Shown: positions 8,651 through 54,395 of the stretch, piece after piece
Position numbering within the stretch: the first letter of the stretch is position 1
Layout of the letters: every line of letters begins with the position of its first letter
From: Lophium mytilinum
Taxonomy: Eukaryota
Assembly: GCA_010093605.1 (NCBI GenBank)
Contig: MU004185.1
Coordinates: 1,323,334-1,387,333 of the forward strand
Length of the DNA: 64,000 nt
Direction of reading: 5' to 3'
Made by a program: the position numbers and the translations under genes
The notes under the pieces: generated by a model
The model's input: only the letters and a program-made list of their open reading frames with translations
What the model was told of the DNA's origin: nothing
Databases searched by the model: none

Positions 8651-9232
8651 GGTGAAAGCCACGGAACCAGATCCGAAGTCGAAGTCGAAGTCGGTAGTGA
8701 AGCAGACCGAGGAGCCTCTTCAGGCTTGAATATAGCCTCGCGGTTGTCGCAATGCGCCCAGTGTCGTATACGCAGTGTTCGAGGGTGGATTACGGGGTCC
8801 TGGACAAATTCGGGTATGGAGGGCAAGCAGCTGCAGCTCTCCGCAAATGCTGGGGCTGAGGTTCGAAGAAAGGAAGGAAAGGAGCGTCGAAGAGAAACAA
8901 TTCCCCCGGAAGTGTGTACTGCGATTACATACACGGGAAGAGAAGGGAAGTGAACAGCAGGGCAAGCCGGGCGAGTGGTGAGGCTGATGGGGCAGAATAA
9001 AGGACAGCTAGCATTCTGATGTCGCGCGCCGCCGCGAATCGCTAGGGTCCAGCGTTCCTGGCAGGGGTACGTTGGCTTAGGCTTATGTAATGTTATCACG
9101 TGCCAGAGGTTTCAACGGTGCGTTACACGGTATATAGGCGAAGTAATCGATCAGAAACCATTAATTAGTCAAATCACATGGTAGCTACAAGGTATCTCCC
9201 AAGTCTCTCTCGAAACAAGAATAATACACCGT

Positions 9233-11915
9233 CTAATGCGACTTCCTCTGCGAGTTTGCCAATGCACTCTCCATCGCCGCCGTGATATCAATATGGAAAA
9301 GCGGCCTGTTTAGACCTTGCACAACTGCGATCCTCTGCGACTTTCCGCCTCCGATCGTGCCGTATGCCTTGGAATGACTGAGCTGCTTGTTCAGGCTGTC
9401 GGCGTCTTCCGATGAGTCTGGACCTTCCTCGATGTCATCGCTGACCGTCTTGCCCTCTGCTTGGGCCGCAGCCCTGCGTTGCGCCTTATTTTGATGCGCC
9501 TCAGCTGCTGCAGCGGCGCTAGATTTTCCTCCGAGTTCGGCGACGCTAAAAATTGGCTTCCAGCGTTCCAGGCCAGATTCGGCATCAGATTCGGGGGTGT
9601 AGTATCCAAATCCAGCCGCGGCAAGCGCACGTTTGGTCCACCGGTTGTTGATGCAGGCAAAGTGCCAATCAACAGTATCAGGAGCGGCATAGCGATCAAG
9701 TTGGTTACGGACATCAATGAGATTCTGGATAGAGGTGACATCGACGTTGTTGACGGATGAGAAATCGAGGATGATAGCCTTGAGAGTAGGCCGGTGGTCA
9801 GTCGGATCTGCTTCTTTACCACGGCGGGGTCCAGGGTTGTTCCATGGGCGGTCCTAAGAACTATTAGTCAATTGATTCGGAAACGAAGGGTGCGAGTTAG
9901 CTTACTCCTAATTTTCCATACGTAGCAGGGTTGGTGCGACGAGTCTTCTCAAAGATTACGTGAACGAGGTTGTCCAAATAATGGTTGGCGTTGGGGTAGT
10001 TGAATCCTTCGGAAAATCGGTAGATGAAGATACCCGGGTATGGGTCTTCGACTTCGATCGTGGGGTTGGATCCATCGTGATGATCAACCGGCAAGAAGAT
10101 ATTCCTGGAGTTCGAGTCTGGGTCGTCTGGGATCCCCTTGGAAGCCTTCGGGGTCCTGCCTTCTTTGCTTTCCTCTTGGTTCAACAAGTGATCACCAACG
10201 ACGGAGTGAACCTTGACTCTTCCGACGAATCGGCCACGGGCCTTGAAAACCCTAAAAATGAACAAGGCGAACGAGACACAAACTGTCGTGTAGATACCAT
10301 TCTCAATGCTGCTGAAGACGGTCACCAACACACCGGCGAAGAAAATCGGCACCTCGAGCGGCGAAATTCGCCAGAATTGGTACAGAGTGTTAGGCGGTGT
10401 GATGAGATCTCCGACAGCATGAATGATAACTGCAGATAGCGCAGCATTCGGAATGTAGAAGAACATGGCCGGAAGAGCGTAGATAGCCAAAAGAACGATA
10501 ATGGCAGTGATAACACCAGCGAAAGGAGTACGGACACCGGCCTTTGACTTGATGGCAGTCCGAGAGAACGATCCAGTGGCAGGGTAGGCACCTAGGAACG
10601 GGCCGAGCAGGTTGGTGACTCCAATGGCTACAAGTTCCTGCGAAGGATCGATGGTGTAATTGTTCACTCTACCAAAGGATTTCGAGATGGAAATATGTTC
10701 AATCAACAACACGATGACGGTGGACGGAAGCTCGGACGCGAATGCGGAGATGATATCTGTAGTGATATGGGGGACACGGGCGTGTTTGAAACCTGATAAC
10801 GGTGAGATGAGTTCATTCAATGGGCGTTCGAAACAGCTTACCTCGAGGAACCTTGCCGAGAAGAGTGAACTTTGGCTTCTTGCGGTGATGTCTGTTGACA
10901 AGATAACTGATGAGAATGTAGAGTAAAATAACGAAAGCCGTTCTCAGAGTCGAGATGAAGAAAAACGTCTTCTGTCGGTTTGGATATCTCTTCGCAAGCT
11001 TGGTACATATAAATCGAATGAGGTAGAGCATGGTAAGTGCAGTCAATCCGATGGCGGCGTTCAAGTTCGATCGTCCAAGATGCTTCAGAATGTTTATCAC
11101 CACTTTGTAGGTCGAGTCTCGAGTGGAGAATCCAGTAATGCCCATCATAGCTGGTACTTGGCCTACGCCAATGTTGATCGCAGAACCGGTCATGAAGGCG
11201 GCGATTGAGGTGAGCGAAATGAACTCAACCAGCCATCCAAGACGCGCAAGACCGAGGAAGCATACAATGGAGCCTGCAATGATCGCTAAGGACGAAGCAA
11301 TTATATCCTTGGGGACATCAGGGCCAAGTTTTTTGGAAGCGCTGATAACGACATTTCCGGTGACAGTTGACAAGACAGCTACAGGCTATACGAACGTCAG
11401 CTGGAGATCAGACGTAAAACTCATTTCACTTACACCAATGGTAATGTCTTTGGATGTAGCAAAGAACCAGTAGATCAGGACGCCCATGAAAGACGAATAA
11501 AGTCCAAATTCAGGGTCAAGATTTGCAAGTTTGGCATAAGCCATGCTCTGTGGGACAACCACAGCGCCGACAGTGATACCTGCCAAATGTCAGAAAGCTT
11601 ACGGGTTGAGAACGACACGAGGGACTCACCTGCAACGAGATCTCCGATAAGCCATTGAGAGTTGTATCTTGTGATCCACTGAAGGAATGGGAACAGCCGG
11701 ATAAAGTAATGCTGAATGTCGCGGCCAGAAGGAGTGACCTGCTGTAGCCATTCGAGAGTCGTGGGCTCCTCTTCAACATAGGTATCGGCGCTGCCCACTG
11801 AGAAGACAGACTCGCCTCTCGTGATTCTCTCAGAGCCAGTCTCGTTGCGGTAGTGCAGCTTGATACCAAGGACCTTGGCCAGGCCGTGGCCAATCTTGGT
11901 GCTGGTAGATGCCAT
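9233..11915 (-). CDS. SulP/SLC26 sulfate permease (sB/CYS-14-like)
   Basis: WLIGDLVAGITVGAVVVPQSMAYAKLA...GLYSSFMG, ATGSFSRTAIKSKAGVRTP and a STAS domain KAIILDFSSVNNVDVTS. Four introns; stop TAG at 9233-9235. Confidence 0.95.
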
Positions 11916-13828
11916 GAAGCCGGGTGTTTTTGAAAAGAGCTTGAAGGGATCCAAGGAGCAGGGTGGAGCTTAACTATGAACAAACCCAGGCTCAAGATCT
12001 CGGCACAGGGTGCCGCTGCAACTAGTAGCTGGCCCGAAAGCGCCCTGGTGGCCGGGATTTATATCGATGCAGCAGAAGCTCTGGGCCTGGAAAAGATTTC
12101 TTTTGGGGTGTGTGATGAGCAATAGTGCAATATGGGGGCTTGATGGCCCGCGGGGTCCCAGGATAGAGTTAGGCTGCAAGCCACAGGACAGGAGCTTGTT
12201 GTGGGGGGATTGGTCTAAAGCTCTGCTACAGTCCGCAATGGGCGTCGATCTGCCTGTGAAAAATTGGTGTTGAAGTTGTCAAAAGGCAAGAGAATGGCGT
12301 GACAGCCTAGGGCAGCCACAATTCGCAAGAGGCGCAAAGGACTGGTGTTCTGCGAAGGGGAGACAGCGGAGATGCAGAATGGGAGCCAGGTGGACAGGGC
12401 CCAGGTCAAGACGTCAAATAAGTTTTAGATCGGATCTGTCCCAGAGATGACGGGAGTACGCGCAGGGTCGAGCGCAGAATTTGACTAAGTGACACCATCG
12501 GGAAAAGTCCGGACAGCGGCGGTCGAGGTCTTGACTGGTGATGGTACAGCTGGGATAGCGCACGGAGCATGGAGGTGATGGAGGAGAACACCCCTAGCGT
12601 GGGAGAAGCACACCAGCGCGGGTGAGGCGACAGGGATGGTGCATGCGATGGTGACCGACAGCTTGCCGGGGTCAGGGCTCGGCATGGCTCTCGGTGAATG
12701 CGTAGGCCTTCTGCACCAATTGCGGGCGCGGAAGCGCCGCAGCGCAGTCGGCCCGGATCCCACGCGAATGGCGTGCTCGAGCACAAAGATGTCGAATCTA
12801 CCTTTTATGGGGTCGCTAGCCGTACCTTGGACCGCGATGTCTTGGCATGAGCAGTATCACCACGCCTGCGGGACAAAGAGCAACGCCCAGCACGGCGAAG
12901 AGCGACTTGGGCAACCTAGGCATGAAGAGAGCCGCAGCGTGCAAACGCCCAGAATCACACCACGACGACGTCTCTGCGGGCTGCGGAATTACGATGTCGC
13001 TCAACTGCCTACTGCCAAAGCGAAAATGCTCGACGCGGATCTAATGACGTGCCGTGAGGCTGCCAGATTCTGGAGTCGGCTGTTGCCAGCACCGTCATCA
13101 TTCGGACTTGGTCGCCTGCGGACTTTGTTAGCAGTCAGTAGTATGACCGCGTGCCCGGGACCTGACGGTTTTGGCGCACCAACCGCGGTATTGAAGGGTC
13201 CAGAGACCCTGCACACATCCTTCACTGTTTGCCTGCCACGCCTGCATGCTTTGACAGCAGCCATCCACGCGTGGGTGTGTTCGACAAGGCAGATCGGATA
13301 AGAGAAACGCATAAACGAGTACGAGGACGAGATGGGGAGCTCGCTCCCTGCAGCTGCAGCTTCCCGCATGACCGAGCAGGATCGGCCATGTGAGCCTGGC
13401 AGGTGGAGCTGCAGGTGTAACGAGGCATCTTGGTAACACTTGTACCCGTCGACAGTTCGTCCAAGGTTCGCTGACGAGATTGGGCCTTGTGTGGATCCTG
13501 TGCTCCTCATTCATCTTTTCTATAAGTCCTATACATGAAGTTATCATAAAGCTCCTGCGAAACACGGCTGGCGGGCGCCTTTTCAGACGCACCGTGCTTC
13601 CTTAGAGTGTTCGACATAGAACAGTGAGTACATAGATTGAACGTAGGTGAGGCGAGGATGTTGTGTCGGTCGCACCATTCACCATTTGGGGTTGTCAGCG
13701 CGGTTGAAAGTAAGTTGGCGGGCCAATCGAGCTGCCACGTGACTGGCCGCAAGCGGCAGGCGCATCGCGAGCTTCTTCATTTCTGGGGAAACTCAAACCA
13801 TCCTCGCGGCTCGCCTTTCCACCACGCC

Positions 13829-14991
13829 ATGACTAATCTTGACCTCCTTCTTCTCAAAGGGCCTCCGACTGGAGACCTCGCAGGAGGCCTCAATGACCTG
13901 CGCTTCACCATTCTGACCAAGGGCATGCCAGCAAACGGCGATGGCATGGTGAGCATCGCCCAGCCTCTGACTGCGCTCTTAGGGGTTTGCGATTTCCCTT
14001 GCTAACAACGAATTGTGCAGTCCGACTTGCGCATATATATATGGCTCATACTCCTGAATGCGCCGCCCGTCCGCACCGACGTCTACCTCGACCTCGTCCG
14101 ACAGGGCGCATCGCCCGCATACACCAAGATCCGCAACGACACCTTTCGCACTCTTGCGACCGATCCTCTCTTTCGACGCCGCGTCACTGAGAACAGCCTG
14201 ACGCGCGTGCTAAATGCCGTGGCGTGGAAACTGAACGACGCGCACGAGGCACGCGTCAACGGATGGCAGTCCCCACCCACGTTGTCCGACTTTGGGGGTA
14301 GCCATGACAACACCTTCAATTCGCGACAGTCTTTTACAACCGGCACAAGGACAGAAGTTTCAAACTCGGATGCGGAGCAAGTGGGCTACGTGCAGGGCAT
14401 GAATGTCCTAGCAGCGCCGTTTCTGTACGCGGCCCGTAGCGAAGTCGAGGCCTTCGTCGCATTCGAGAGGCTTATTACGCAGGAGTGCCCTGCTTACGTA
14501 CGCGGACCCATGGATGGTGTTCACAAAGGCCTCAGGCTTGTGGACACTGTTCTCGAGATTGTAGACCCAAAACTGTACTCCCACCTCATGAGCAAGGGGA
14601 TGCACGCCGAGCTTTACGCGTTTGCTTCTGTTCTCACCATGTCCGCGTGCACGCCACCTCTACCAGAAGTTTTGCAGCTCTGGGACTTTCTCTTCGCATA
14701 TGGCCCGCATCTCAACATCCTCTGCATCGTAGCACAGCTGATCCTGATAAGAGACCAGATTCTGGGGAGTCCGAGGTAAGCGCTGATCATTTCCACTTTT
14801 GTATATGCTATTCAACGACATCCTACCGCCGACCGTCACTCCAAGTCACTGTGCTGACGTCTTGCAGTCCAAACCAGATACTCCGCTCCTTCCCTCCGCT
14901 ACAGGCCGCAAAGGTCATTCAGGTTGCGACATCGTTTGCCGCTAAGATTCCGGCGGACATCTATGAGCAGATCATCAATCACGCGAAATGA
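13829..14991 (+). CDS. BUB2: Mitotic exit/septation network GAP Bub2/Cdc16 (TBC domain)
   Basis: KIRNDTFRTL, YVQGMNVLAAPFLY, CTPPLPEVLQLWDFLFAYGPHLNILC and LRSFPPL. Introns 13949-14020 and 14776-14867. Confidence 0.93.
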
Positions 14992-17042
14992 TTGGCGTTT
15001 GTGTCATTGCGAACGACAAATGATTGGTTCGAATTCTTTTGATACCCTTTTTTGCGGAACGGTATTTAGAAAAAGTTGCGTGATTTCACCTGGGCATCGG
15101 CGTTGGCGTAGCACGATAGTTCCGGTATCTCGAGCGCTGGACCGCTCGAATGTTGGCTCACATCAAAAAAGTCTTCTTTATGGAAACTTGGGTTCGTATG
15201 GTAATGATTATGATGAAAGATGAGCATAAAAAGTAGCTCTGTTCGGAGTAAAACAATATAGATCTTCACAACCCGCAAGCTTGACTATACTGTCTCAACA
15301 TCGTGAAGTTCAAGCTTCACTTGCGCCTTCAATTTACTCCGTTACCATCCTACAGCCCGGAACATCGTCACGTCACCTGTGTTCATTCAACTATCAGCCT
15401 CTACATGCCCTCTTTCTCATTCCATTTCTTCTTCATATGAAATCACACCAGCATTTGTCTCTAGCTCGAAAAACTGTTTCACTGTTCACGGCCTTGACCA
15501 CACAAGCCACGTGCCCACGGCTCCTCGTTCCTCCGTTCCGGCCCAGATCTCTCGTTTTTGGGTATGAAACTTCTCGCGGGAACTCATCCTCGGCTTGGTC
15601 ATAGGAATCAGCCATGGGCTTGGGGGATCAAAAGTTATGGCCTGCGCCGCCATGGCATAAAAAGAACTTGGAACTCGACTGATGGGTTTGTGGGAGTAGA
15701 AGACGTAATCCTTCGCCTACATGATACTGTCGTGGATCGTCAATAAGTTCGGCATCCCATACTTACGATGGTTCGGTTGTGGGTGCTGGCTGTGGTGGAG
15801 GAGGGGCTCCTGTAGCTTGCTAGTGGTCACTGACGGGCGGCGATGGTGGTTGTTAGTAGCTATCTTCCTCGTTGCGATGTGTCTGTCTCTTAGAAAGTAG
15901 GTCGTCTTCGACTAGTTGTAGTGATTATAAGTATCATTGTGTAGAGGTATATTGCTGCAGACTATCGGAAGCTCTTCTCCCAACATGGAGGACTCCCACC
16001 TCTCCGCTTCCCAAACCCGTCCCATGAGAAGTCTCGCGAACGCAGGCTGAAACTCAATTCTGCCCATAGAAGAGGCCGAGAGAAACTTTCGACCCCGACA
16101 CCCACCCGGCGCCTATAGCTGTCATTGCAGCATCTATTTGAACGACAGCCCATGAGGCAATGGCTTCTCAATACTCAAAACCCGCCAACTTCCCATGCTC
16201 TCTTCACTGCGCAGCCACTTGGTAGGTTTTATACCCCTCAGAAATCCCCAAAATGGAATTCACGTGCTTCCTTCCTGAAAAGCGGTGAATACTAGGGCCC
16301 AATCAGATCTTCGTAGCGCTTCGGAAGCCCCTCCGGAGCACCCTTGCTCATCACGATCACCGTTAAATTTCAAAACGCAGTGAAATGTAGACCTTACCCG
16401 AAAAGAGGGTGGGAATTGAAGCTGGAGAAGCTCCGGAAGGTCGATGAATGATAATGACTCCACACTTCAGTTGTGCCAAGAGTTGCTATTTCGGAAGGGT
16501 GATAAAGCATATGGTGAATAAAAGGTACACTTCGTGTGAAGAAGATTGTGTGATCGGTGAAAGTTAGAGAGATCTTCATTCCAGGTAGTCCACACAATAA
16601 ATGCGTGCTAAGAGTTGCTGACTTGAGACATGCGCGGGTGTAAACACTTGGATCAGGTTTGCAAAAACAGGTACCTCGCAAGATATATCCCTTCAAGGTG
16701 CTTCGCAACACGTCTGAGGTGAGATCTCGACGATCGAGGATCGAAATGGCCAATCAAAAGGCCCCAAAAATAACCATACTCCATCAACCTAAGTTTTCCT
16801 CGAAAGCGAGGCGGATTTACTGTTTGGTTTCGGAGTTCGCAAAAGGCATATTGTGATAATTGGAAAATATGGAAGGCCTAGGTGAGGGGTGGTTGATCTT
16901 GCTGACTTCGCCCCATTACCCATAAAAAGCCTCTTCAGTAAGTCACTCATGTCTCCTTCAAAACGACGTTCTATCATCCTTTTCACCTTACAGAGTTCCC
17001 CCTATCAATTTCTCTGGATCGAACTTTCTATTTACTTCCATA

Positions 17043-19539: not shown

Positions 19540-22500
19540 ATGGTTAAAAAGGCCATGTAAGCTAGACTTGGGGATAGGAATACAAGCCGTATACTGATCT
19601 CCTTATGTAGTGACTCCCGGATTCCAGCATTGATCCGTAATGGAGCTCAAGTAAGTTCAAGAACCTACAATTGTCTTTCTCGCAGTCGCTAATATACCAA
19701 TTTTAGGAGAAGAAGCGGAGTTTCTTCGTGGTGGTCGGCGACAGGCAAAAGGATGTTATCGTCAACCTATACCACATCTTATTGAACGTGGATGTCAAGC
19801 TGAACAAGTCTGTGCTCTGGGCATACAAAAACAAGCTCTTGGGCTTCTCGAGGTACATTCAGTAACTTCAGTGGGAAGAACTGCGCTAATTGCTGTATCT
19901 CAGTCACCGGAAGAAGCGAGAAAAGAAAATCAAGAGCGACATCAAACGAGGAATCCGCGATGTCGACACCGACGATCCCTTCGAGCTTTTCATATCGACC
20001 CAAAACATACGATACGTCTACTATAAGGAGACCGAGAAGATACTGGGAAACACCTACGGCATATGTATATTACAAGATTTTGAAGCCATAACGCCAAATC
20101 TGCTGGCGCGGACAATAGAAACTGTGGAGGGTGGTGGAATGGTTATCCTGCTTCTCAAGGGCATGAACAGCTTGAAACAGCTATACACTTTGTCCATGGA
20201 CATTCATTCTCGATACCGGACAGAAGCGCATAACGACGTAGTTGCTCGTTTCAACGAGCGGTTTATCCTATCCTTGGGTAGCTGCGAATCTTGCCTCGTA
20301 GTGGATGATGAGCTCAATGTACTGCCCATCTCAGGCGGCAAGACCGTACAACAGCTGCCGCCGCCCGACCTCGAAGATGAAGGAAAATCGCCGAATGCAA
20401 AGGAGTTAGAGGAGATCAAGGAAAGCCTTGTAGATTCGCCTCCGGTGGGATCATTGATACCACTAGCAAAAACCGTCGATCAAGCAAGGGCACTTCTTAC
20501 CTTCGTCGATGCGATCGCAGAAAAGACGTTACAAAGCACCGTTACCTTGACTGCAGCACGTGGACGTGGTAAATCAGCGGCTCTGGGCGTAGCGATCGCA
20601 GCTGCGATTGCGCATGGATACAGCAATATCTTCATCACATCTCCCAGCCCGGAGAATTTGAAGACTTTATTTGAGTTTGTATTCAAGGGCTTCGATGCAT
20701 TGAACTACCTCGACCATGTAGATTACTCTATTATCCAGTCTACGAATCCGGACTTCAACAAAGCCATTGTCAGAGTCAACGTTCACCGGCAGCATCGCCA
20801 GACCATTCAGTACATTCGACCGGAAGATTCTTATACCTTGGGCCAAGCAGAGCTTTTGGTCATTGACGAGGCTGCGGCTATTCCGCTTCCCTTGGTAAGG
20901 AAGCTCATGGGACCTTACTTGGTCTTTATGGCTTCAACTATCAACGGTTACGAAGGGACGGGTCGGTCACTGTCACTCAAGCTGATACAGCAGCTCCGTG
21001 ACCAGTCGAGAGGAAAATCCAAATCCAACGGTGACGATCAAATAATCGACCGGAGCTCTGGCAAGGAGTCGAAGGACGCATCAGAAACCTCATCTGGAGG
21101 CCGATCATTAAGGGAGATCACCCTTTCGGAGCCCATTCGATACGCTCCCGGCGACGGCGTCGAGAAATGGCTCAACAAGCTTTTGTGCCTTGATGCCACA
21201 CTGCCAAAGTCCAGCCTCAAGACACTAGGCTGCCCCCATCCTTCAGAGTGCGAACTGTTCCAAATCAATCGAGATACCCTGTTTTCTTTCCATAAAGTTT
21301 CCGAAAAGTTCCTTCAGCAGATGATGGCATTATACGTTGCCAGTCATTACAAAAATTCTCCCAACGATCTCCAACTAATGTCAGACGCTCCCGCCCACCA
21401 ACTGTTCGTTTTGACTCCACCAGTGGACCCGAAGAGCGAGCGACTTCCTGAGCCACTTTGCGTGATTCAGGTTGCTTTAGAAGGCCAAATCAGCCGAGAA
21501 AGCGTCCTCAACAGTCTCAGCAGAGGTCAACGAGCTGGTGGAGACTTGATACCTTGGATCGTGAGCCAGCAATTCCAGGACGAGAACTTCGCAGGTCTTT
21601 CCGGTGCACGAGTGGTGAGGATTGCGACAAATCCTGACTACATCAGCATGGGCTACGGATCGCGAGCTCTGCAACTACTTCTGGACTTCTACGATGGGAA
21701 ATTTGCCAGCCTGTCGGAGGTGGAGCCGACCGCTGAGCTTGAGATGCAACGAGTCACCGAGGCAGAATTGGAAACCTCTACTCTCCTCCAAGATAACGTC
21801 AAGGTCCGAGATATCAACAAAATGCCCCCGTTGTTTTCAAGGCTTTCAGAGCGCAAAGCTCCAGGGCTCGACTACGTCGGTGTAAGCTACGGTCTGACAG
21901 CACCTCTCCACAAATTCTGGAAGCGATCGTCGTTTGTTCCGGTATACCTACGCCAAACACCGAATGATCTCACGGGAGAACATACCTGCGTCATGATACG
22001 AGCGTTAGAAACATCGAACGAAGAAAGCTCGTGGGTAGGCTCCTTTGCTCGCGATTTCCACCGAAGGTTTTTGTCACTCCTCTCATACCAGTTCCGAACC
22101 TTTCCCTCAGTCATGGCCCTTTCGATCGACGAGTCAGCGTCTGCTGGCAGCAAACTGGACATGGCATCGGCGCCACCTCCTCTGACCAAGTTGGAACTCG
22201 ACAAGTTCTTCTCGCCTTTCGACCTCAAGCGACTGGACAGCTACGCCAACAACATGCTGGATTATCATGTCATTCTCGATATGCTACCGACTATTGCCAC
22301 TCTCCACTTCACCGGACGCCTCAAGTCCGCAGTCAAGCTTTCTGGAGTTCAAACATCCCTATTAGTCGCGATCGGTCTACAGCGGAAAGGCTTCGAGGAT
22401 GTGGAGAAAGAACTAGGCTTGAACAATTTGCAGCTGCTCGCCATGTTCGTGAAAGTCGTTCGAAAAGTCTCGACACACTTCCGGAGTCTTGTCGAAGGGG

Positions 22501-23015
22501 CTGTCGCGGAGACTATGCCAGAGGCAATGGAGGTAGACGATGAAACTGGAGTTCATGGCGACAACGGTGTGAAGAGCGCGGAGCTACAAAGATTCAAACC
22601 GTTGGCTAAGAAGCTGGATGAAGAGCTTGCTGAAGGAGGCGAGGAAGTTGACCAAGCTGAGAGGGAGCGTGTGAGGAGTATGATTGATGCTCTCCCGTTG
22701 GATCAGTACGTTGATTCTTGCTCATATTGAGAGTAAATGTAGTAGCGCTAACGTATTTCCGACAGGTACACAATTGACAGCGAGAACGCCAACTGGGAGG
22801 ACGCCGAGCGCAAGGTCCGCGCCGCACAAGCTAAGGGCGGCAAAGAGATCACCGTCAGCATCAAAACAGGCAAGTCTTCAAAGAGGAAAGCGGGCGAAGC
22901 AGTCGAAGAAGCTTACAAGGAGGTGATGGGGACCTCGAAGGAAGGCAAGCCGAAGAAGTCTAAGGGTGATGAAAAGCCAAAGAAGTCGAAGAAGGAGGGC
23001 AAAAAGAGTCGATGA
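19540..23015 (+). CDS. KRE33: RNA cytidine acetyltransferase Kre33/NAT10
   Basis: MVKKAI|DSRIPALIRNG; LQDFEAITPNLLARTIETVEGGG; P-loop TAARGRGKSAALG; IDEAAAIPLP; GNAT motif RIATNPDYISMGYG; Lys-rich tail ending TGA at 23013-23015. Three 5' introns and one 3' intron. Confidence 0.97.
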
Positions 23016-25895: not shown

Positions 25896-26693
25896 TCATG
25901 GTGGAGGTTTCTTAGACCCTCTCCGCGTCTGCATGGGATGCAGCTCGCCAATCTTATCCGTGAAAGGCGAGTAAGGCGCCGCAATAACATGGAGGGGCGC
26001 TCTCTGATCTCGAGACGGCTCGCCCGAGCTTGGTCGCTGCCGTTGCTCTTCATGCAGCTTGTCTAGCGATTCGCCAACGATGTGATATTTCGCCCAGTTG
26101 ACCGGCGGAGCGCGGAAGATATTCTGCGGGGCTGGCACTGGAGGGAATTTCGACTTCAGCTCTGGTGGCGACGTATCCGCAGAATCCTTCCGGGCGTCAA
26201 GCCGCTCCCCTTCGTTTCCACTCGAAGACCCCCCAGCATCCGGGTCGTCGAGGGTAGGCGCCAGGATATTCGAAGCCGGGTTCGCAGACTGCAGTCGCCC
26301 GGCTCGCAGCTCGCGCACAAAGGCCTCGGGCTCGGCCACAGCGGCGGTCTTCAGTTTCTCGAGCGTCAAGAGGTCGCGCTTGCTCTTTTCGCGCTGTAGT
26401 TGGAGTAGTGATATGGCGGACCGCATGGCAATGACATCGGGGTTCTCGCTCTCTGATATCGGCACCGGCGCGGGCTGCTTCATGAAGGTCGCGGGTTGCG
26501 GGGGGAGAATGCGCTCTTGGACATTGCTGTCTGCAGGCACCGTCGCTAGCTGGGCGAGGGTCGCAACGGGCGTGAGGGGCGAGACGGGCGGCCTCCGGGG
26601 CGAGCCTTCGCCATCGTTGTAGTAGTCATCGTAGCTTTCGTCGCGGGAGGGCGTTTCGTCGGGGGTGGGCGACGGAATCGTCACTGCGGGCAT
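25896..26693 (-). CDS. Conserved hypothetical protein resembling the N-terminal conserved segment of ZZZ3 (HAT-complex subunit-like)
   Basis: NPDVIAMRSAISLLQLQREKSKRDLLTLEKLKTAAVAEPEAFVREL...PAPQNIFRAPPVNWAKY resembles, from memory, the ZZZ3 segment. Intronless 265-aa ORF. Confidence 0.65.
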   Translation of the reverse strand: MPAVTIPSPTPDETPSRDESYDDYYNDGEGSPRRPPVSPLTPVATLAQLATVPADSNVQERILPPQPATFMKQPAPVPISESENPDVIAMRSAISLLQLQREKSKRDLLTLEKLKTAAVAEPEAFVRELRAGRLQSANPASNILAPTLDDPDAGGSSSGNEGERLDARKDSADTSPPELKSKFPPVPAPQNIFRAPPVNWAKYHIVGESLDKLHEEQRQRPSSGEPSRDQRAPLHVIAAPYSPFTDKIGELHPMQTRRGSKKPPP

Positions 26694-28509
26694 GGTGGAG
26701 GACGAGTGGCGGGCCTCAAGAGGCAGCGGGCCACAACGCGGAGGGACCAGGGCTTAGCGCAGCTCCTAGACGCCACGCGGTGAGGCTGGTGAAGACGAGG
26801 ACACGCGCGATGCTGGCCCGCAGCGCGAGATGAGTTGCTCACGGGCGTGTGGGCGCGATGGGATGGCGTTGCGAGGTTGGGACTGGCCTCGCCTGTGCGT
26901 GCAACGTTGGGCCAGCGTCCAGATCCCGAAGGTCGCTTTTGCAGGCAGTGGCGTCTGGCTGGGCGGGCAGGACGGGAATAGACAAGCGAGACGGAGCCCT
27001 GGAAATGTGACGCGTCTCTTCCAGCCCGAACAGTCGCCGTGTGCTACTGCAAAAGGCCTCTCTGCGCTCTGAGACAGAATCGGGAGTGCGGCAATCGTGA
27101 ATCTATCGGGATCATCCTAGGCGAACGGGCCGAGAAAGATGTCGCGCACGACCCGATGCTGTCCCTCCACAACTTCCCGACTACGTACTCGCGAACCTCA
27201 TGTCGACTCAATCATGATGTGCGGAGCCATCTTCCGCTAGCAACCCGAACTTCTGCGTTCCTGAACGGCTTCCCGGCGAATTCTCAATTGGTCAAGGTTG
27301 AATAAAAGCTCGCTGCCTGGGCGGCCCCTATTGGACTGCCCTGCAAAAGACGATTAATTACGGCCCACTCGCGCGGCACAAGCTTCCTAGCCAGCGGAAA
27401 AAGAAACGGCAATACGGGTCCACATTCGGGGCGCGCAGAAGCACTGCAGCAGGCGACTCCATGGTTGGGCTGCTGTGCCCAAAGTCCATGCTGCAATTGC
27501 GTGGAGAGCGGTGACGCAGCACGAGGAGCCTCATTCCCGCAGATCACCGATGCGGCCAAGTAACGAAGCAGCTTCCCCCGAGTCCCGGCTTCGGGCAGGC
27601 TTCGAAGCAGGCTCTGGGCGCGCCTCCAGCTCCACCATGTCGTGCCGTGCTGCCAGTCAGTGCCGTGTGGCTTGCTTCCCGCACAGCTGGACGCCCTCTC
27701 CACTTCCCTCTCCTGTGCAAGATCGCCGCATCCGCTATCAGCTCCCAAGCCATGAAAAGAATGACAGCGCGGGGGGCAGGGAGCAGCGTCCCTCGAGCCG
27801 ATGTCATCAAAGCAGGGCAACTTTGCCAGGCGTTTGCTCGTGAAATCTGGGGGGAAACCCATCAGCTTCCATATTCGACCTTCTCCGCAAGCACTGCGCC
27901 AGCACCCTGCAAGCTCTGTGATCCGACCATGTGCGGGTCCAGATCTCGTGCCTTCCTAGTCAGCCATCTGTATCGATCAAAGACGTAAGCTCCGTTGGCA
28001 GTCCTAGCAAGGAATGCGTCGCAGCTTGTGGGCGCTGGGCAAGAAACCGCCCAGCTTCCCGGAGCAGATCCCGCCTCAGAAGCTCTCATTCGTTCCACCA
28101 CCATGCCGGCGAGGAGACGGTAACGGACTGCTGGTAATCTAAACTGCCCAAACGCCAGGTGCCGTGGCAGGCTGAGGCCCTGCGAAGCATCTGCCAGCAG
28201 CCCGTCCGTATTCTTCCAAGCTACATCCTTGTTTATCATTCCCCCCGTTCCCCTCGACCCTTTCGCGTCCGTGTCCTTCGTGTCCTACTCGTCGTTTTCC
28301 GCAGCCTCTACCCCTCTGTCTCACTTTCCTGCTTGCGACTGCCATATTTCTGACTTTGCTTTGAATAATTCCAATGGTGCTGGCTGTGAATTGAGATTTC
28401 GGCATTTTTAGCCTAGTAAGAGATCAATGACTCTAGTCGGCCGCGCGCTAACTCACCGGCTGCTAGTCGATCTCGTCCATTCGTTGCAAGATTACTTCGT
28501 GCTTCCGCC

Positions 28510-31990: not shown

Positions 31991-32823
31991 ATGTTTCGAC
32001 TCTCCGGGAACGGCTGGATATCATCGAGATCCCTACCCGCTTTTACAGCCAAGAGGACACGGGCGACCCGCTACATGCGATCTTTCCAGAGAAAGAGGGC
32101 TTTTCATACGGCTAGCCACCTGGAACTTTGTTTTGTCTTATTCCATTGGATTCAGCGAGCGGGTTTTGGAGACTTGGACGTAATATTTCAGCATCGGCGT
32201 TAGCATTGGTGGGATACCAGGACTCTTACGATTTCTTTAACTTCCTTTCGATCCCATTCTCGGCATTTTATACCCCAACCGCCCGCGGCAGGAGTTCGAT
32301 CTTGCTCTGGAGACTCTCACAGTACATGGAAGGCTGCCCTGACAACCTAGCGGAGAGTTTCGGGCTCGATTCTCATTGGTAAATTTAAAGGGCGTAGCAT
32401 CATATAGCACCACCATTTGTCCAACAGCATAACACAGGATAGCATAGCCAGTCATGGACTAGTCGGAGCGGCTGTGGTAGTAGAGATAATAATGTAGTCA
32501 TGTTTCCACTAGTCGCTTCGTTGTGTGATATCTGTCACGTCTTCTTATCTCTACCTCGTGTTTCCCAGAGTCACCTCCCCTAGTATTGGCATCACAGCCA
32601 GCTCACATCCTCATCATGAACACTTCCCTACGACCCTCTGCCCCTTTCAACGCCCACATCACTTCCCCATGGCCCATCACACCGCCAGAACACCCTCTCC
32701 TTTCCCCACCCTATATCTCACACCCCTCAACCCTCCTCCATCCCCACCACGCCATCTCCCCTACACCACAGCCCACAAAACCCGCCAACTAACCACCAAA
32801 AAACCCCAAATCAAGACTAACAC

Positions 32824-33240
32824 ATGACCAAAGTCTCCTTCCGCTGGAAATGCTGCCAATCCGGCCACTTCCAACCCCTCACGACGCCCTGCCCCTGCGC
32901 CCACAAGCGCTGCAAGAAATGCCAGTACGTCCACGTGCGCCCGCCGCTGCTGAAGCGCAAAGCCCCTCCTGCCCCTAATCCTGAGGCAGCGGGTATGGGC
33001 GGCCAGCCGGTTTTCACGCAGCCGCCGCAGGGAGGGTTCCAGGGCGGGTTTGGGGGACAGCAGCAGCCGCAGGGGCAGTTTCAGGGGCAGAATAACCAGG
33101 GCGGGTTTGGGGAGGGGGACTTTGAGGAGGGGGACGCGGCGACGGGGCAGGCGGATTCGATGATAGGGGAGGGGGCGTCGCGGGGTTCGAGGGGTGGAGG
33201 GGCGGGGACGGGGATGCAGTTTCGACGGGGCGGGCGGTAG
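32824..33240 (+). CDS. Small hypothetical protein with Cys-rich (zinc ribbon-like) N-terminus and Gly/Gln-rich tail
   Basis: WKCCQ...CPCAHKRCKKC motif. The true start may lie in an upstream exon (CTAAC...AAG at 32817-32833). Confidence 0.5.
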   Translation: MTKVSFRWKCCQSGHFQPLTTPCPCAHKRCKKCQYVHVRPPLLKRKAPPAPNPEAAGMGGQPVFTQPPQGGFQGGFGGQQQPQGQFQGQNNQGGFGEGDFEEGDAATGQADSMIGEGASRGSRGGGAGTGMQFRRGGR

Positions 33241-33751: not shown

Positions 33752-35613
33752 TCACAATGTCTTTGGTTTGCTTCGTTCGCTGCTGATGGCTCTGAATTTG
33801 CTCCCAAATATGCCACTCTTGGTGGCTAGATTCCACAAGCACCAAAGATAACATATCCCGAAGCCTGCGGCACCGATAAGCACGTTCAACACGACCCATA
33901 AGTCTGGCAAGCGCTCTGGAGGGGGGACAAAGCCTTCTAACACATGCCATCCAATCATAGCGAGATAAATATTGAGATGAAGAATCTTCGTCCCCAGAGT
34001 CAAGCCTCCAGATGTCCCTTCGTAGTATGCGGAGAGCGAAACGGGCGGGAGGCCGAGGAGGTATGCCCATAGGAGTGTGATGACGAAGTACGGAACCCGC
34101 AGGTCATCCCTCTTGAGAAGAGGAAACATAGTCCATACTCCTAGCATATTTGCTAGACCGACCCACGCCCTGATTGAAGGTAGTAGCCCCCGTTTTCCAC
34201 TCAGTAAAACGGTCATCGGTAGAAGTGGCAGGAGCACATTCTTCTCGTGGACCTGATACGAGCAGAGGAAGAAGCCCCAGGAGGTGGCCGCGAGAGCTAG
34301 AGGGAGAAGGTCCTTGCGTGGTTTGATAAGGAGGATAAGGCATGGCGGAGCTATGGCAGCAGAGGTGGCAAGGAGAGCCGCACGTTGGACCAGCGCGCTG
34401 GGATATTGATTGAGTTTGTGCCAGGTGTGAATCGCGCACCAGACGTTGGCGACTTTATCTTCAAACAGGCCGCGCGCGAATGGGAAGATTCGGTGGACTG
34501 ATTGGAAGAATTGGAGCACTATGGGGTAGTACCACGCCTTTTCGTTGAGGTTAATAGGCAGGGATGCCAGAAGAGGAGGAACGGAGTAGTTGGACATGTC
34601 GATGCCCCTGTATGAATCGTATGCTACTCCTAGAAGGAATGGAGCATAGAGTAAAGCGAAGGATACCGCGGTAACCAGCGCGATAGCAATTAAGCGTAGT
34701 GTTTTTATGCGCGGGACAAAACAGATGCCCAAGAGGTAGACAAAAAAAGCCGGGGCGTAGAACAGAGCCATCTGTTTAAAACCAAGGGCTGCTACGAAGA
34801 ACACGCAGCCCCATAGTGGGCGACCTGCAATCATGCTTGACATGCTACCAAGCACTAAACCGAGCATTACGGTGTTGTATTGGAAGTGACCGTGGTCAAT
34901 GAGCATGGTTCCGGGTTGCATCAGAACAGCCACAAGCGCAATGGATGCTTCCCACAGGTTTACTCCTTCTAGCCGCGAGAACCGACGGAGGAAGATTATA
35001 GCGGCGGGTATGTAGATGAAGTATTCTGAGACGAAGACGGTGGCGCGCATGTATATCTTTAGGGACGGGTCATCGAGGCCACGGGAAGTGAACAGCGCAA
35101 ACCAGCCTGGGTTTATGAGCGTGCCACTGTAATGTGTAAGTTTTTAGTACGATGTTCGAAGATACAATCACGTACACCGCACCAAGCAGCCAGCTATGAT
35201 ACGCCGTGAGAGGGGGATAGTCTAATCCCCACCACTCTAGGTCATGAAAGTACCATTGGGAAACGGGCAGGCGCGTGGTAATCTCCATCCAGTGTCTTTG
35301 CGCTTCAAAGTCCCCGTGCATGGGTGGCGACTCATAGCCTGCTTGTATCAGCCTTGATTGATCCAGCAGAAGAACCATATGTACCAGAGTATCCCCAAAA
35401 TCCAGTCGTCCATCGAAACAGCCCAACTGCCATTAGAATTAAAGGGAGAGTGACCCATTGCGACACTGTCCCTTTGGCAGGCCAGAGAAAGGCAACGAGA
35501 GGAAAGGCAGGTTTTGGGGTGTTCGTATTATCAATTGTGCCATGGGTGACGTGTGCGAGGGAGCTCTCTTGGATGCGTCTCCTTCGAGGCTTGTGGGGTT
35601 GTGGGGAGGCCAT
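33752..35613 (-). CDS. ALG6: Dol-PP-Man9GlcNAc2 alpha-1,3-glucosyltransferase
   Basis: [67 protein letters not shown] and QVHEK. Two introns. Confidence 0.96.
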
Positions 35614-35974
35614 GACGAGTGTTCGCTGGATCAAAGGAGCGTGTGCGGTTGTCGAGTGGGCATTTCGGTTCCAGAGAGGTGTTTGGCTGGCGATTTCGAG
35701 TCTCCAGCCGATGTACTGGCGCGAACGATGCACGTTGCTCCCTTGGTGTTGAACTTCTGAAATCCATGCAGGGGTCTGCAGGTGCGGCAACCACCGTCTT
35801 GGCGTTCCTCACCGCCTTGGGTTTCGCCCCACCCAAAAGGCTAGCGCAGAAATTTCTACGTCAAATAGCTCCCGCCTCTCCATTTTCTTCTTCCTCCTCC
35901 ACCACCAACCTTTCGCATTCTTCTCCGCGACTCCATCTACTTTCCCCTTGAGCATCATCTCAAGGACTTCACTT

Positions 35975-36510
35975 GTGGGCTTTCTGAGGGTTTATCTGAG
36001 GGCATACCTGTGAGCGTTACCGTGGGCAGCGACATCATCGCAAATACAATTACCAGAGCTTAAGTCAGTGGGCACTCGAGACACAGTCTCTCTTCCTTTA
36101 CACACATCGTGGGTTGCATTATCTTTGTGGGCTTTCACCGCGCCATTGAGCGTGAGTGAGATACAGTTCCAGTGGGCTTTTGACTACTGTGGGTTTTTTT
36201 CGCACATTTTCTCGGCTTTTGTGGGAACACGATGCCTTGGAAGCGGACTTCTGTGGGCTCTGTGGGCTAGTGGGCTATTACACTTGTGGGCTTGAGGGAT
36301 TCCGTGTCACACGCGGTCTCTAAAGAATTCAGTGGGCTACTGCACGTTGAGGAAACCAGACCGAAAAGACGAACTTCTCCCAGTCCCTTGCGCTTGACCC
36401 GTCTAAGGTCGTTGACGCAAAGGCAAGCTACTGCTTGTCTAGACTACCCGCGACCTTTTTTGCGCCTTCGCATCTAGTCCGCTGGCGGCACAGTTACTGA
36501 CTCGTCCTAG
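35975..36510 (+). promoter_or_regulatory. NSR1 5' leader/leader intron with GTGGG motif cluster and one uORF
   Basis: 13 GTGGG and 3 GAGGG, all on the + strand in 35975-36336. Branch point and acceptor TTACTGACTCGTCCTAG end at 36510. Donor candidates lie at 36010, 36064 and 36152. Confidence 0.6.
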
Positions 36511-36538
36511 ATCAAGAAAACGCTTCAGCACCATCAAT

Positions 36539-38183
36539 ATGTCCAAAGTCAAGGCAGGCAAAGGCGATATCGCCAAGGTCTCGAAGAAGGATACCAAAAA
36601 GGTAGCTCCTGTCAAAGAAGGCCGCGTTACGAAACCCGCTCAGACCCCAAAGGCAAAGAGCAAGGAAGTTGCCAAGTCCGCCGCCGCCAAGGTCGAGAAG
36701 TCGTCGAAGAAGTCCAAGAAGGTAGCTACTCCTTCTCCTGAGCCCGAGTCTGAATCCGAGTCGGATTCCAGCGACGCCAGCGAGTCGAGTGCCTCCTCTT
36801 CCAGCAGCGAGAGCGATAGCGATAGCGACGCCGAAGTGGCTCCTAAGAAACTCAATGGTGTCAAGACTAATGGTGCCGTAAAGGCTCCAGCAACGGCCGA
36901 CTCTTCCGACGACGACTCGAGCGAGGCAGATAGCGATAGCAGCGACAGCGAGGCCGAGGCTGCCCCTACACCTGTGAAGGCAAACGGAGCCAAGGCCAAT
37001 GGCGCTGCTAAGGCGGCGGCTACTTCGGACTCTGATTCATCGGATGAGAGCGCGAGCAGCGAGGACGAGTCCGAGGATGAGAAGCCCGCTGCGACCAAGG
37101 CCAATGGAGCTGCGAAGGCCAAGAGCGCTGCTGTCAAGGCAGAGGACAGTGTAAGTAAAAGCAGGGCGTTCTTGGAGTAGCATGTCACTAACGAGAGCAG
37201 GATTCTTCTGATGACGACTCTGCCGACTCTGAGGCTGCTTCTGACGATTCCGACTCGAGCGAAGATGAGGCTCCTTCCAAGAAGCGCAAGGCTGAGACCG
37301 AGACCACTCCAGCTGCGAAGAAGACTAAGGTCGAGCCTGAAGCTGATGAGGGCATCAAGAACCTGTTTGTTGGCAACCTGAGCTGGAACATTGACGAGGA
37401 ATGGCTCACCCGTCACTTCGAGGAGTACGGAGAGATCACTGGGGCTCGTATCATTACGGACAAGGCCACTGGCAAGGCCAAGGGGTATGAAAATTTGCTT
37501 GTAACCTTACCTTGTCATCCGCTAACTGGGTTAGATTTGGATACGTCGAATTCGCATCTGGCGCCTCTGCCAAGGCCGCTCTCGAGGCGCTGAATGGCAC
37601 CGAACTTGATGGTCGCAACTTGAACGTTGACTACAGCACCCCTCGCTCCACCGAGAACAAGTCCTTTGCGGACCGCAGCAATGACCGTAGCAAGCGCTTC
37701 GGTGACCAGAAGGGCGCCCCTGCCAACACTCTGTTTGTTGGCAACATCTCATTCGAGGCCACTAACGACATGATCTCCGAATACTTCTCGGAGTACGGCA
37801 CAATCACCCGTGTGTCTCTCCCGACCGACCAGGAGACCGGCAACGCCAAGGGTTTCGGATACGTCGACTTCACTACCGTCGAGGAAGCTACGGCTGCCCT
37901 CGAGGCTCTCAACGGCGCCGACATTGCTGGCCGTGCCATTCGTCTTGACTACGCAACTCCTCGCCCAGATAACGGTGGAGGCGGACGTGGCGGCGGGTTC
38001 TCCCGTGGCGGCGGACGTGGTGGCGGACGCGGTGGCTTTGACCGCGGCGGACGTGGTGGTGGACGTGGCCGTGGTGGATTTGACCGTGGAGGCCGTGGCG
38101 GAGGACGCGGTGGAGGCCGTGGAGGCTCCTCGTACAACCGTGGTGGCTTCGGCGACTTCCAGGGCAAGAAGGTCACCTTCTAG
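36539..38183 (+). CDS. NSR1: Nucleolin homologue Nsr1/Gar2 (acidic Ser-rich N-terminus, 2 RRMs, RGG tail)
   Basis: RRMs NLFVGNLSWN..KGFGYVEF and TLFVGNISF..KGFGYVDF; RGG repeats ending FQGKKVTF*. Introns 37151-37200 and 37485-37534. Confidence 0.96.
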
Positions 38184-52320: not shown

Positions 52321-54395
52321 ATATCGTCCTCCAATCCTCCCTCGTAATCCGCTCCTCCCGCAACAAATCCATCTCCTCCCCCCACATCACCCTCCCCGTG
52401 CCCCTCCCCGCCGGCACCGCAAAAAACGCCGCTTTAAGCGCGGGCGCCGCATCCGAGTACACCGCGTCATGAATCCGCATCTCCTCCGCCGGCCACTCCC
52501 CCTCCTCCACACACCGCGTCTCCTCGCGCAGGATGATCCGCGCCACGCTCGCCGCGCTCGTCGACGTCGTCCAGAGCCCTTCGCGGCGCGGATACTGGCG
52601 CAGCAGGGACAGAGCGTCACGGCGGACGTGGGGGTGGCGGCAGCGGTGGGCGATGAAGTAGACGGGGGCGATGAGCTGGGGCTCGAAGGAGAAGACAGGG
52701 CAGGACGGTGTGTCGTCAGGGAGGCCGGCGCCAGACTCGAGGACCTGGGTAGAGAGGGCGAGGGCGAGTTTGAAGGCGGGGAGGTGGGTGTCGTAGGCCA
52801 TCTCGGTGGGGTCCATGCAGCAGGTTAGCCAGATGTGGGTGACGGTGTAGAGGATGCGCAGGACGGTGCTGGCTTCGTGTAGCGAGGGCGTCGTGCAGAT
52901 GGTGGCGGTCGAGGCGTCGAAGGCGGCAAGCCATTGTGGGATCACGGCGCAGAATTGGGCGTGCTCGTCCAGTTCGCCAGGGAAGAAGCCGCAGGGGTCG
53001 TATTTTTTGCGGTTGTATTTCATGATGGTCATTAAGGCGAGGTTCATGATGTCGAAGAGTGAGAGGCGGGCTTCGTGGAGGGTGGAGAATTTGTCTGGTA
53101 TATAGAGAACTAGCCCACCCGTGGTAGAGGATGGCGATAGGTAGAGTTGAGGTGCGCTGTGACCGAAAAGTAGGGCTGTCTAATGGTAGTAGTTCACATG
53201 TCAGCCGTTCTGCTATAGAGAAGGGGATTTTAGGATAGAATCTGGATCTTCGGACGTCCTGGGGTGCCACTTAAATCGTGTTCAAGACACCATTGGGGCT
53301 TAATCTGGTGCATAAAGGGACTGGACTGTGTGCTCAAACGCGAACTTAAGTAGGTGCTGAAACACGACCTGTGAAATAATGACACCAGAGGACTCTGGTA
53401 TATGTGATACGACCTTACATACCATTGTGAACCGTGCGAAAGCTGGCACCAGCTTGTCTTCTACAAAGGTAAGAGTAGTGCTCTCTGGTGAAGTAAGCAG
53501 CTTTTGCGAAGCTGAAGGTATACCAAGCCGTCTTCGAGCTCGAAGCGTCGCTAGTATGTCCAGACCACTCAAGAAGTGTGCCATGGCGAACTCGGTGTGC
53601 TCAGCGCGTAGTATTTCCATGCATACAAAAAGGATGCAGGTAACCAAAGATATCTCTAAAGCGTTCGATTCTATCTGCATACGAGCGATTAGACATCTAA
53701 TAGCCTCGTTATAGTGTTTCAAGTAGAACCTCTTTCCTTGAGCTGGCAGAACAAGCGGGCATGCTGTTTGCCGCTGTTCCATTCCCCTCTCGTACAGATA
53801 GCTTATGACCATAGTCGCATGTCGTATAGCTGGCTCTACGGAAGCGAACTGGAGCACTATCCGCATCCAAAGATCCGAATCGAGATTTCCAGATAGCCTA
53901 GGACCGGCGCGATGGAAGTAATAGTTTAGATACCGTGACTCTTCAGGGCTGCCAGCCAGGGAATGGAGGGACTTGTCCGCTCTGATAAAAGGTTTGATGG
54001 TACTTTGGTTGAAATTCACAAAGCTACGTCCGACCGGCGAGGTTGAGTACCCATCGCACTTTCTTCCTGTGCTTGTGCATCTGTGATATGTGAGTTAACA
54101 GCTTGCGTTATCACTGGAAAAATGATTACCTTAGGCAATGGGGTTTCGCCTCGTCACACTTGATTTTTCGAATTCTGGACGAGGGTTATTACGAATTCTA
54201 AGTAATGATAGAGTATAAGAATTGTGAATTCGGTCTTGCGATTGCGAACTGTGGATCGTGAATGGAGCGAAAGAAAAGTAAGAAATGGGTTTCAGAGTTC
54301 CGGCCTACATACTTGCAGGTTTCGCAGCCAGTCCTGACCTTCGCGTTCGGCCTCCGCGCCTTTATTCTGCAACTTGATTTGGTAGACCCTCCCAT
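52316..54395 (-). CDS. Zn(II)2Cys6 fungal transcription factor
   Basis: KVRTGCETCK|IRKIKCDEAKPHCLR|CTSTGRKCDGY across introns 54312-54175 and 54129-54081. The C-terminal fungal TF domain includes EPAIRHA, LVTCILFVCMEIL and CRHPHVRRDALSLL. A further intron lies near 53422-53180. Confidence 0.92.

Follow-up and report, generated by a model that had tools for sequence, protein, structure and literature searches.

A conserved sense-strand motif array at the fungal nucleolin gene NSR1 as a probable RNA-level platform and a candidate feedback element

Nsr1/nucleolin is a core and abundant ribosome-biogenesis factor, and we know of no mechanism that sets its level in fungi. How might such a gene be controlled? 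The question is raised by a 64,000-nucleotide (nt) stretch of the Lophium mytilinum genome (GenBank assembly GCA_010093605.1, contig MU004185.1, positions 1,323,334 to 1,387,333 of the forward strand; hereafter the window, whose own coordinates are used throughout). A series of short G-rich words lies there in the 5' leader of NSR1, and a first-pass annotation had proposed that they form an autoregulatory RNA switch. Direct letter search returned all 13 GTGGG words exactly where that annotation had placed them, ten of them reading GTGGGC (eight GTGGGCT), together with GAGGG at 35986, 35998 and 36294, and found neither CCCAC nor CCCTC within 35900–36540. The array proves to be conserved in orthologous loci, and it is probably an RNA-level platform for a protein.

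The array comprises 16 copies of GWGGG (W, A or T) between 35975 and 36336, all on the plus strand and none on the minus strand; 11 of them are GWGGGC, and every one of the 16 GGG triplets of 35900–36540 belongs to a copy. Over the whole window GWGGGC occurs at chance level (92 versus 81.8 ± 8.8 in shuffles). The local cluster has 11 GWGGGC in 362 nt where the rest of the window would predict 0.23 (Poisson p ~2e-15), and no other window cluster on either strand reaches four GWGGGC with gaps of at most 120 nt. Further G-rich clusters, at 26630–26870, 32620–32930 and 52600–52920, are coding or purine-rich GAGGG runs that differ in context from the array word. The densest part, 36253–36298 on the plus strand, holds five copies in 46 nt within a block, TGTGGGCT..GTGGGCTTGAGGGATT, that can be aligned in two orthologous loci (L001 and L002, introduced below). 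Tandem Repeats Finder scores just 36250–36298 (period 8–9), the remaining copies being dispersed; the array has no constant period and was not classed as a tandem repeat or minisatellite. Rfam gave no match at gathering score in the window, and for 35700–36700 a single chance-level match on the minus strand (E 2.4).

The gene downstream (36539–38183, plus strand) has a three-exon model that translates into a 514-residue protein. It begins Lys-rich, continues with long acidic/Ser-rich stretches and two RRMs, and ends at the C terminus in an RGG (GAR) tail. All three hallmarks of the Nsr1/gar2/nucleolin family, namely the acidic/Ser-rich N-terminal part, the two RRMs and the RGG tail, are present. 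Coding exon 1 (36539–37150) specifies the Lys-rich start and the acidic/Ser-rich stretches; exon 2 (37201–37485) the end of the acidic region and the first part of RRM1 (Pfam RRM_1, 1.4e-10); and exon 3 (37536–38183) the rest of RRM1, RRM2, the RGG tail and the stop codon (RRM_1, 1.1e-31 in two stretches). A homologue search with exon 3 alone, rather than the full spliced protein, listed relatives in Dothideomycetes and other Pezizomycotina with 54–73% identity over 100% of the exon; the match list therefore mirrors the RRM/RGG part. These relatives go by the names nucleolin, Nsr1 or nuclear localization sequence binding protein, and the predicted product thus identifies the host gene as an Nsr1/nucleolin orthologue, in line with the first-pass annotation.

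RNA contigs were available from runs X1 (identical in sequence to the window), X2, X3 and X8, X2 and X8 being relatives. X1 contigs are spliced at an intron in the 5' untranslated region (UTR) and at the first coding intron (joint 37150|37201, also in X3), so this run holds RNA-derived sequence. The X1 leader contig starts at 35950, directly after a CT-rich tract (35880–35949, plus strand) that by position is the presumed core promoter. The first copy follows 25 nt later, so that transcription covers all 16. The array thus lies inside the transcribed leader and its intron, as the first-pass annotation had it, with transcription reaching back to at least 35950. Contigs of X1 and X2 join 36063 to 36511 with GT..AG ends, so that splicing uses GTCAGT at 36064 as its donor and 36510 as its acceptor; the donors at 36010 and 36152 that had also been suggested occur in no contig shown. 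The intron (36064–36510) is 447 nt long versus 50 and 50 nt for the coding introns. Exon 1, of minimal extent 35950–36063 (X1, 35950–36063; X2, 36007–36063), lacks an ATG and contains four of the 16 copies (35975, 35986, 35998 and 36022); the other 12 lie in the intron, all within its first 273 nt. A branch-site-like ACTGAC and the acceptor TAG close the intron (36496–36510), and exon 2 contributes a further stretch of 5' UTR (36511–36538) according to the gene model and the contigs.

Two features of this intron bear on how it might be controlled. The donor GTCAGT (36064–36069) is weak, and it overlaps a copy, GTGGGC at 36068–36073, which covers donor positions +5 to +10. With the intron retained, the leader would also contain a 12-codon upstream open reading frame (uORF, 36232–36270) that starts at the sole ATG of the intron; this uORF is not conserved, other loci reading ACACAC or ACACAT at that place. 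Unspliced contigs run across splice sites in X1 (36194–36540) and X8 (36034–36602), and X8 also has spliced NSR1 sequence. To us the unspliced contigs suggest an intron that is retained or slow to splice; genomic DNA in the runs is the alternative source. Their depth is a sixth to a third of that of the spliced contigs (2723 versus 8414–16710 in X1; 43.7 versus ~134–161 in X8), a ratio that cannot quantify retention, and leader stretches without contig cover (X1, 36064–36193; X8, 35722–36033) carry no information.

Is the array a peculiarity of one genome? One scan of metagenome contigs with orthologue alignment yielded 79 loci (L numbers), of which 17 are fungal NSR1 by tblastn; start and stop codons were set by translation. 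Ten metagenome loci have a readable leader, defined as at least 500 nt, and L018, with 145 nt upstream, was excluded from this set. Counting the word per strand in orthologous leaders, as the first-pass annotation had suggested, revealed a sense array in 10 of the 11 loci with a readable leader, the window and nine of the ten metagenome loci. Sense/antisense counts of GWGGG in up to 650 nt of leader were 16/0 in the window, 13/0 in L001 and L002, 7/1 in L004, 7/0 in L005, 6/0 in L006, 13/1 in L008, 7/1 in L009 and L010, and 10/0 in L014. Four further loci carry the array at the other end of the gene, within ~30–400 nt after the stop codon: L027 (leader 1/2, 3' region 10/0), L028 (leader 3/1, 3' region 9/1), L018 (3' region 7/1) and L042 (13 copies behind the stop codon). 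The arrays of L027, L028 and L018 begin at most ~80 nt after the stop codon, and in L027 the next plus-strand open reading frame lies ~1 kb past the array. The opposite gene end is nearly empty in both types, 5'-type loci having no more than two sense copies within 500 nt past the stop codon. L027 and L028 have a short CT-rich leader directly before the ATG in which no splice signals were seen. No 3' array is present in L003 and L007, whose contigs end short of the leader.

Loci were placed by likeness to the nearest named protein and by NCBI lineages, which is not an identification. The nearest named proteins of leader-type loci are from Parastagonospora (L001, 94%), Pyrenophora (L002, 93%), Capronia (L010, 72%), Candelina (L008, 68%), Elsinoe (~70%) and Lepidopterella (64–68%); those of 3'-type loci are from Rhexocercosporidium (L027, 98%) and Coleophoma (L018 and L028, ~80%). 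Leader-type loci accordingly include L001 and L002, which we take to be Pleosporales-like; L006 and L009, Myriangiales-like or other Dothideomycetidae; L004, L014 and the window, other Dothideomycetes; L010, Chaetothyriales-like; and L008, Candelariomycetes-like. The 3'-type loci L027, L018 and L028 are Helotiales-like, and L005 (leader type) and L042 (3' type) are unplaced. With protein identities of 55–94%, the metagenome loci do not represent one species.

The strand of the copies is kept throughout. Ten 5'-type leaders contain 99 sense versus 4 antisense GWGGG, and the 3' regions of three 3'-type loci contain 26 versus 2, so that 125 of 131 copies are in sense orientation (binomial p ~5e-30). 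An array that moves from the leader to the 3' UTR of the same gene and keeps its strand favours an RNA-level, gene-specific element, which supports the RNA-level interpretation put forward at the outset.

Alignment of 137 copies from 14 arrays gives the consensus YTGWGGGCTT. Position −2 is a pyrimidine in 125 of the 137 copies, and position −1 is T in 91 and G in just one; W is T in 92 and A in 45. The word continues with C at +5 (93/137), T at +6 (100/137) and T at +7 (77/137), and a fourth G is avoided at both of its sides. The array word is thus longer than a G-triplet. Successive copies start 7 to 135 nt apart, and the arrays have almost no CCC (0–2 each). In each of the four pairs of loci compared, conservation is higher in motif columns than in spacers: 121/139 versus 275/417 (87 versus 66%) for L001/L002, 95/140 versus 208/467 (68 versus 45%) for L027/L028, 90/121 versus 229/462 (74 versus 50%) for L027/L018, and 86/103 versus 299/440 (83 versus 68%) for L028/L018. 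At closer range, X8 differs from the window by no substitution in the 352 nt of array at 36034–36385 (one T-run indel) versus seven in the 125 nt of 36386–36510 (Fisher p 7e-5, array versus rest of intron), and by ~2% of coding positions. The 3' UTRs of L028 (5816–6320) and L018 (1704–2200) share 68% identity even outside the copies and contain degenerate relatives of the word, GTTGGCT and TGTGGTT; the platform may be larger than the strict word implies.

The donor region is also shared. The same donor string, ...A|GTCAGTGGGCA, occurs in the window, L001, L002 and L008, and a donor-like (T/C)(C/G)G|GTTCGT stands ahead of the array in five leader-type loci (L004 at 115, L005 at 3710, L006 at 3904, L014 at 439 and L009 at 3827). 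These look like two conserved donor types of apparently one intron.

Embedded in the leader arrays is a candidate RNA structure. An invariant block, TTGTGGGAACAC, which includes one copy, is found in eight of ten leader-type loci and in none of the 3'-type loci, and is predicted to fold as UGUG-GGAA-CACA on a GGC/GCC helix and an outer helix. The window's three-helix hairpin spans 36208–36243 on the plus strand (outer helix, GGC/GCC, UGUG-GGAA-CACG; minimum free energy −11.9 kcal/mol, z −2.79). Folded alone, segments from seven of the eight loci adopt the same architecture (L006 lacks the outer helix), with z from −1.2 to −3.4, and L008 presents a variant in which GAC/GUC replaces GGC/GCC, with a UUAA loop. 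In a hand alignment, compensatory outer-helix pairs are seen in L004, L006, L009 and L014. RNAalifold on a MAFFT alignment of the region recovered just the invariant 4-bp inner helix, because MAFFT misaligned the outer helices. Flank complementarity exceeds that of shuffles in L009 (p 0.0005), L002 (0.009) and L014 (0.023), with a combined Fisher p of 6e-5, and does not in the window, L005 and L008 taken singly.

We then asked how specific the array is to NSR1. Both strands of the window and the 79 loci, 425 kb in all (~181 kb fungal), were scanned for at least four GWGGGC with gaps of at most 120 nt. This returned 11 clusters, all of them at NSR1 and all in sense. As a single negative control, another ribosome-biogenesis gene, that of the KRE33/NAT10 RNA cytidine acetyltransferase (19890–22727, plus strand), has no array at either end. 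Arrays at NSR1 only and none at KRE33/NAT10 make a regulon-wide element less likely, in a small sample. G-rich clusters of L011 and L012 were set aside as coding or purine-rich GAGGG runs whose context is unlike that of the array word. In L027, purine-rich GAGGG/GTGGG clusters of a context unlike the NSR1 word were noted on both strands (580–650, 1600–1800 on the minus strand, 2480–2860, 8130–8270 on the minus strand, and 10590–10796); they are probably coding or low-complexity sequence.

The array is, then, a cluster of sites of one word in the transcript of an RNA-binding protein's own gene, conserved in orthologues. A multi-copy word and a hairpin on the own transcript of an RNA-binding protein are the usual anatomy of feedback, and for this reason we favour, at a little under even likelihood, a multivalent platform on NSR1 RNA with Nsr1 as the preferred binder and negative feedback as the outcome. 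The array consists of 6–16 sense copies of YUGWGGGCUU, with the conserved hairpin among them in leader-type lineages, and would be read multivalently by a sequence-specific single-strand RNA-binding protein. That this protein is Nsr1, with its two RRMs and RGG tail, is close to a balanced call, on the lower side; in excess, it would bind its own RNA. In the window the coated platform would mask the weak, copy-overlapped donor GUCAGU and hold splicing back, and retained-intron RNA, with a leader of ~590 nt and one uORF, would then be a poor substrate for export or translation. The 3' UTR platform of Helotiales-like fungi would instead act on 3' processing, export or stability. The yeast telomeric G-strand contains TGTGGG. 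Published work makes binding by Nsr1 plausible. In the available part of PMC4650311, S. cerevisiae Nsr1 is cited as a binder of the telomeric single-strand G-strand, and in that of PMC7768239 it binds G-run DNA via its RGG tail; the array word is tested in neither.

Several points weigh against this interpretation. Protein binding, the identity of the binder and the sign of the effect are all proposals drawn from sequence, and transcription of the 3'-type arrays is inferred from DNA. To our knowledge no RNA sequence preference of Nsr1 has been reported, and the site selected in vitro by vertebrate nucleolin, UCCCGA in a hairpin loop, is unlike the array word. L012 has no array either in its leader (1/2) or after the stop codon, and three loci, L005, L006 and L010, have weaker arrays that stay below the cluster threshold. 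Gene specificity rests on ~181 kb of fungal DNA and one control ribosome-biogenesis gene. The outer-helix alignment was made by eye and leans towards the structure. The copies are predicted to be no more unpaired than other bases (0.14–0.31 versus 0.36–0.47), so we make no claim of accessibility. Finally, part of the unspliced contigs may be genomic DNA, and contig depths do not quantify retention. As for L012, its NSR1 gene (2900–4640) has ~50% identity in the RRM region and its taxon is unplaced; the locus may mark a lineage without the array.

The main rival keeps the same RNA platform and changes its reader. Through another G-tract binder (a Gbp2/Hrb1-like, Tcg1-like or heterogeneous nuclear ribonucleoprotein (hnRNP)-type RRM protein), NSR1 output would be linked to growth, to temperature or to the surveillance of nuclear RNA, and not to Nsr1. 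All RNA-level evidence fits this equally. A platform confined to the gene of an RNA-binding protein is, however, the usual signature of self-regulation, and a general RNA-binding protein should have many targets, whereas the ~181 kb of fungal DNA, a small sample, contained no second array. Neurospora has candidate readers: within the accessible text of PMC4650311, the Gbp2 orthologue NCU02404 is confirmed as a single-strand G-strand binder, and TTAGGG repeats pulled down the Tcg1 orthologue NCU07735, whose cloning failed. On balance we regard such a reader as rather unlikely.

A purely structural element that acts on transcription, splicing or translation, whether as an RNA G-quadruplex or, on the non-template DNA strand, as a G-quadruplex or R-loop, is improbable. 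The G-triplets do lie on the non-template strand, with 0–2 CCC per array; human genes are known to have first introns that are G-rich on the non-template strand (PMC2275096, as far as its available text goes), and the RGG tails of Nsr1 and nucleolin bind G-quadruplexes according to the accessible parts of PMC7768239 and PMC11789052. The canonical motif is nevertheless not conserved: four runs of at least three G with loops of 1–7 nt are present in two of the 14 arrays, that of the window not among them, and loops of up to 12 nt raise this to 4 of 14. The G-quadruplex platform suggested by the first-pass annotation was therefore not borne out. The top G4Hunter score is at most 1.2, spacings vary between 7 and 135 nt, and neither the conserved flanking Y, T, C, T and T nor the avoided fourth G is required by a quadruplex.

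Equally improbable are double-strand DNA sites for a transcription factor, in an intragenic or downstream NSR1 enhancer. GNGGG-type cores are typical of C2H2 zinc-finger sites, and in 5'-type loci the array is near the promoter. Enhancers, however, need no fixed strand, and 125 of 131 copies stay in sense through the array's change of place between leader and 3' UTR. The array also contains an RNA hairpin that shows compensatory changes, and both points speak against an enhancer. The window has no copies upstream of the RNA-covered region, and KRE33/NAT10 is without copies.

Slightly less probable still is a pure splicing aid, in which intronic G-triplets define a long intron or decoy 5' splice sites bind the U1 small nuclear ribonucleoprotein. 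The 447-nt intron is long beside the 50-nt coding introns, the intron contains most copies in the window and, going by predicted splice sites, also in L005, L006 and L009, and GTGGGC is a known cryptic donor in human LMNA according to the accessible portion of the source. As an array of donor-like sites, though, the copies fail at both the GU start and the upstream G: 45 of 137 have GA in place of GT, and only one of the 137 has a G directly before the word, the reverse of what a donor shows. As an intronic enhancer only, the array is contradicted by the four exonic copies among the 16 of the window and by the arrays after the stop codon in L018, L027, L028 and L042; 3'-type lineages, the Helotiales-like loci among them, show no leader-intron signals, so the array is not just an intronic enhancer. 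A neutral, decaying minisatellite has next to no likelihood, for apart from the short tandem run at 36250–36298 it does not account for an array that recurs at NSR1 in 14 loci from several classes, for motif columns more conserved than spacers, or for the lack of substitutions against X8.

How does the favoured platform compare with known systems? Among RNA-binding proteins that regulate themselves through clusters of their own sites are yeast NRD1 (Nrd1/Nab3 sites) and the RPL30 and RPL22 introns; for RPL22 there is also PMC5755908. The NSR1 array resembles these in that the gene for an RNA-binding protein has many short words or a hairpin in its leader, intron or 3' UTR, in sense only, conserved in orthologues and with one site adjoining a splice donor. 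It differs in that its word is new, its place alternates between leader intron and 3' UTR among classes, and its feedback is a proposal. In S. pombe, meiotic mRNAs carry determinant of selective removal (DSR) elements, with the word U(U/C)AAAC, which are read by Mmi1. Like the array, these are dispersed hexamer-like repeats that act as a cluster at a flexible place in the transcript, and they act in the nucleus on splicing and decay; their word and binder family are different, and they serve a regulon of many genes, whereas the array was seen only at NSR1. The nucleolin recognition element of pre-rRNA likewise combines a small hairpin and single-stranded words for nucleolin-type RRMs, as is proposed here, with a UCCCGA loop there versus the UGUG-GGAA-CACA hairpin of NSR1.

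Three G-rich systems offer more distant parallels, as far as the available parts of the reports describe them. Vertebrate intronic G-triplet enhancers and hnRNP F/H sites (PMC3575826) are also GGG words enriched on the RNA strand of introns near the donor; the NSR1 word, by contrast, has ten bases, is exonic and in the 3' UTR as well, and is gene-specific and fungal, and for fungi we found no report of sites of this sort. G-quadruplex-prone elements of human first introns (PMC2275096) share G-runs downstream of the transcription start on the non-template strand, but their four-tract quadruplex motif is not conserved in NSR1 arrays. RGG-motif proteins that bind RNA G-quadruplexes of their own RGG-coding sequence (PMC11789052) parallel the proposal of an RGG protein on its own G-rich mRNA; the G-rich RNA is coding there, whereas the NSR1 array is separate, non-coding and made of a defined word.

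In the literature outside subscription journals and supplements, we found no description of the NSR1 array and no occurrence of its 7–8-base words, and published occurrences of its 6–7-base forms are none of them related to fungi. Neither NSR1 nor gar2 is named in the accessible portions of two published searches for RNA motifs conserved in fungi, and the accessible literature on nucleolin autoregulation, intron retention and G-triplets in fungi contains nothing on such an array. What is new here is that several fungal classes share a sense-strand array at NSR1, placed either in the leader intron or after the stop codon; this points to a form of RNA-level control that has not been described. 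Among site clusters on the mRNAs of RNA-binding proteins, the switch between leader intron and 3' UTR is an unusual trait.

Two observations concern the surroundings of the array. An ALG6/ALG8-family glycosyltransferase gene (33752–35143, minus strand, reaching towards 35426) is divergent from NSR1, with ~500 nt of common upstream region between it and the first RNA-covered NSR1 base. Within NSR1, RNA contigs of the relatives skip parts of the acidic/Ser-rich coding region, 51 nt (36598–36648; X8 and X2) and 162 nt (36719–36880; X8). Both lengths are multiples of three with GT..AG-compatible ends, and the skipped stretches could be repeat-region length variants or in-frame introns inside an exon.

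A bolder form of the feedback proposal, which we consider doubtful, is that the array is an ancient element inherited from the common ancestor of Dothideomycetes, Eurotiomycetes, Candelariomycetes and Leotiomycetes, with the Nsr1 RRMs reading YUGWGGGCUU and the GGAA hairpin. Nsr1 not engaged on pre-rRNA would then coat its own pre-mRNA; in leader-type lineages the donor would be masked and the intron retained, and in 3'-UTR-type lineages 3' processing or export would be blocked. If this is true, YUGWGGGCUU would be the first defined RNA recognition code of a fungal Nsr1 and might mimic a pre-rRNA site, and NSR1 output would be tied to the demand for ribosome assembly. An element of one strand and one gene that extends over several fungal classes and has moved from leader intron to 3' UTR is a natural experiment that separates RNA-level from DNA-level control, and its ten-base word is a concrete candidate for the RNA sequence preference of a nucleolin-type protein.

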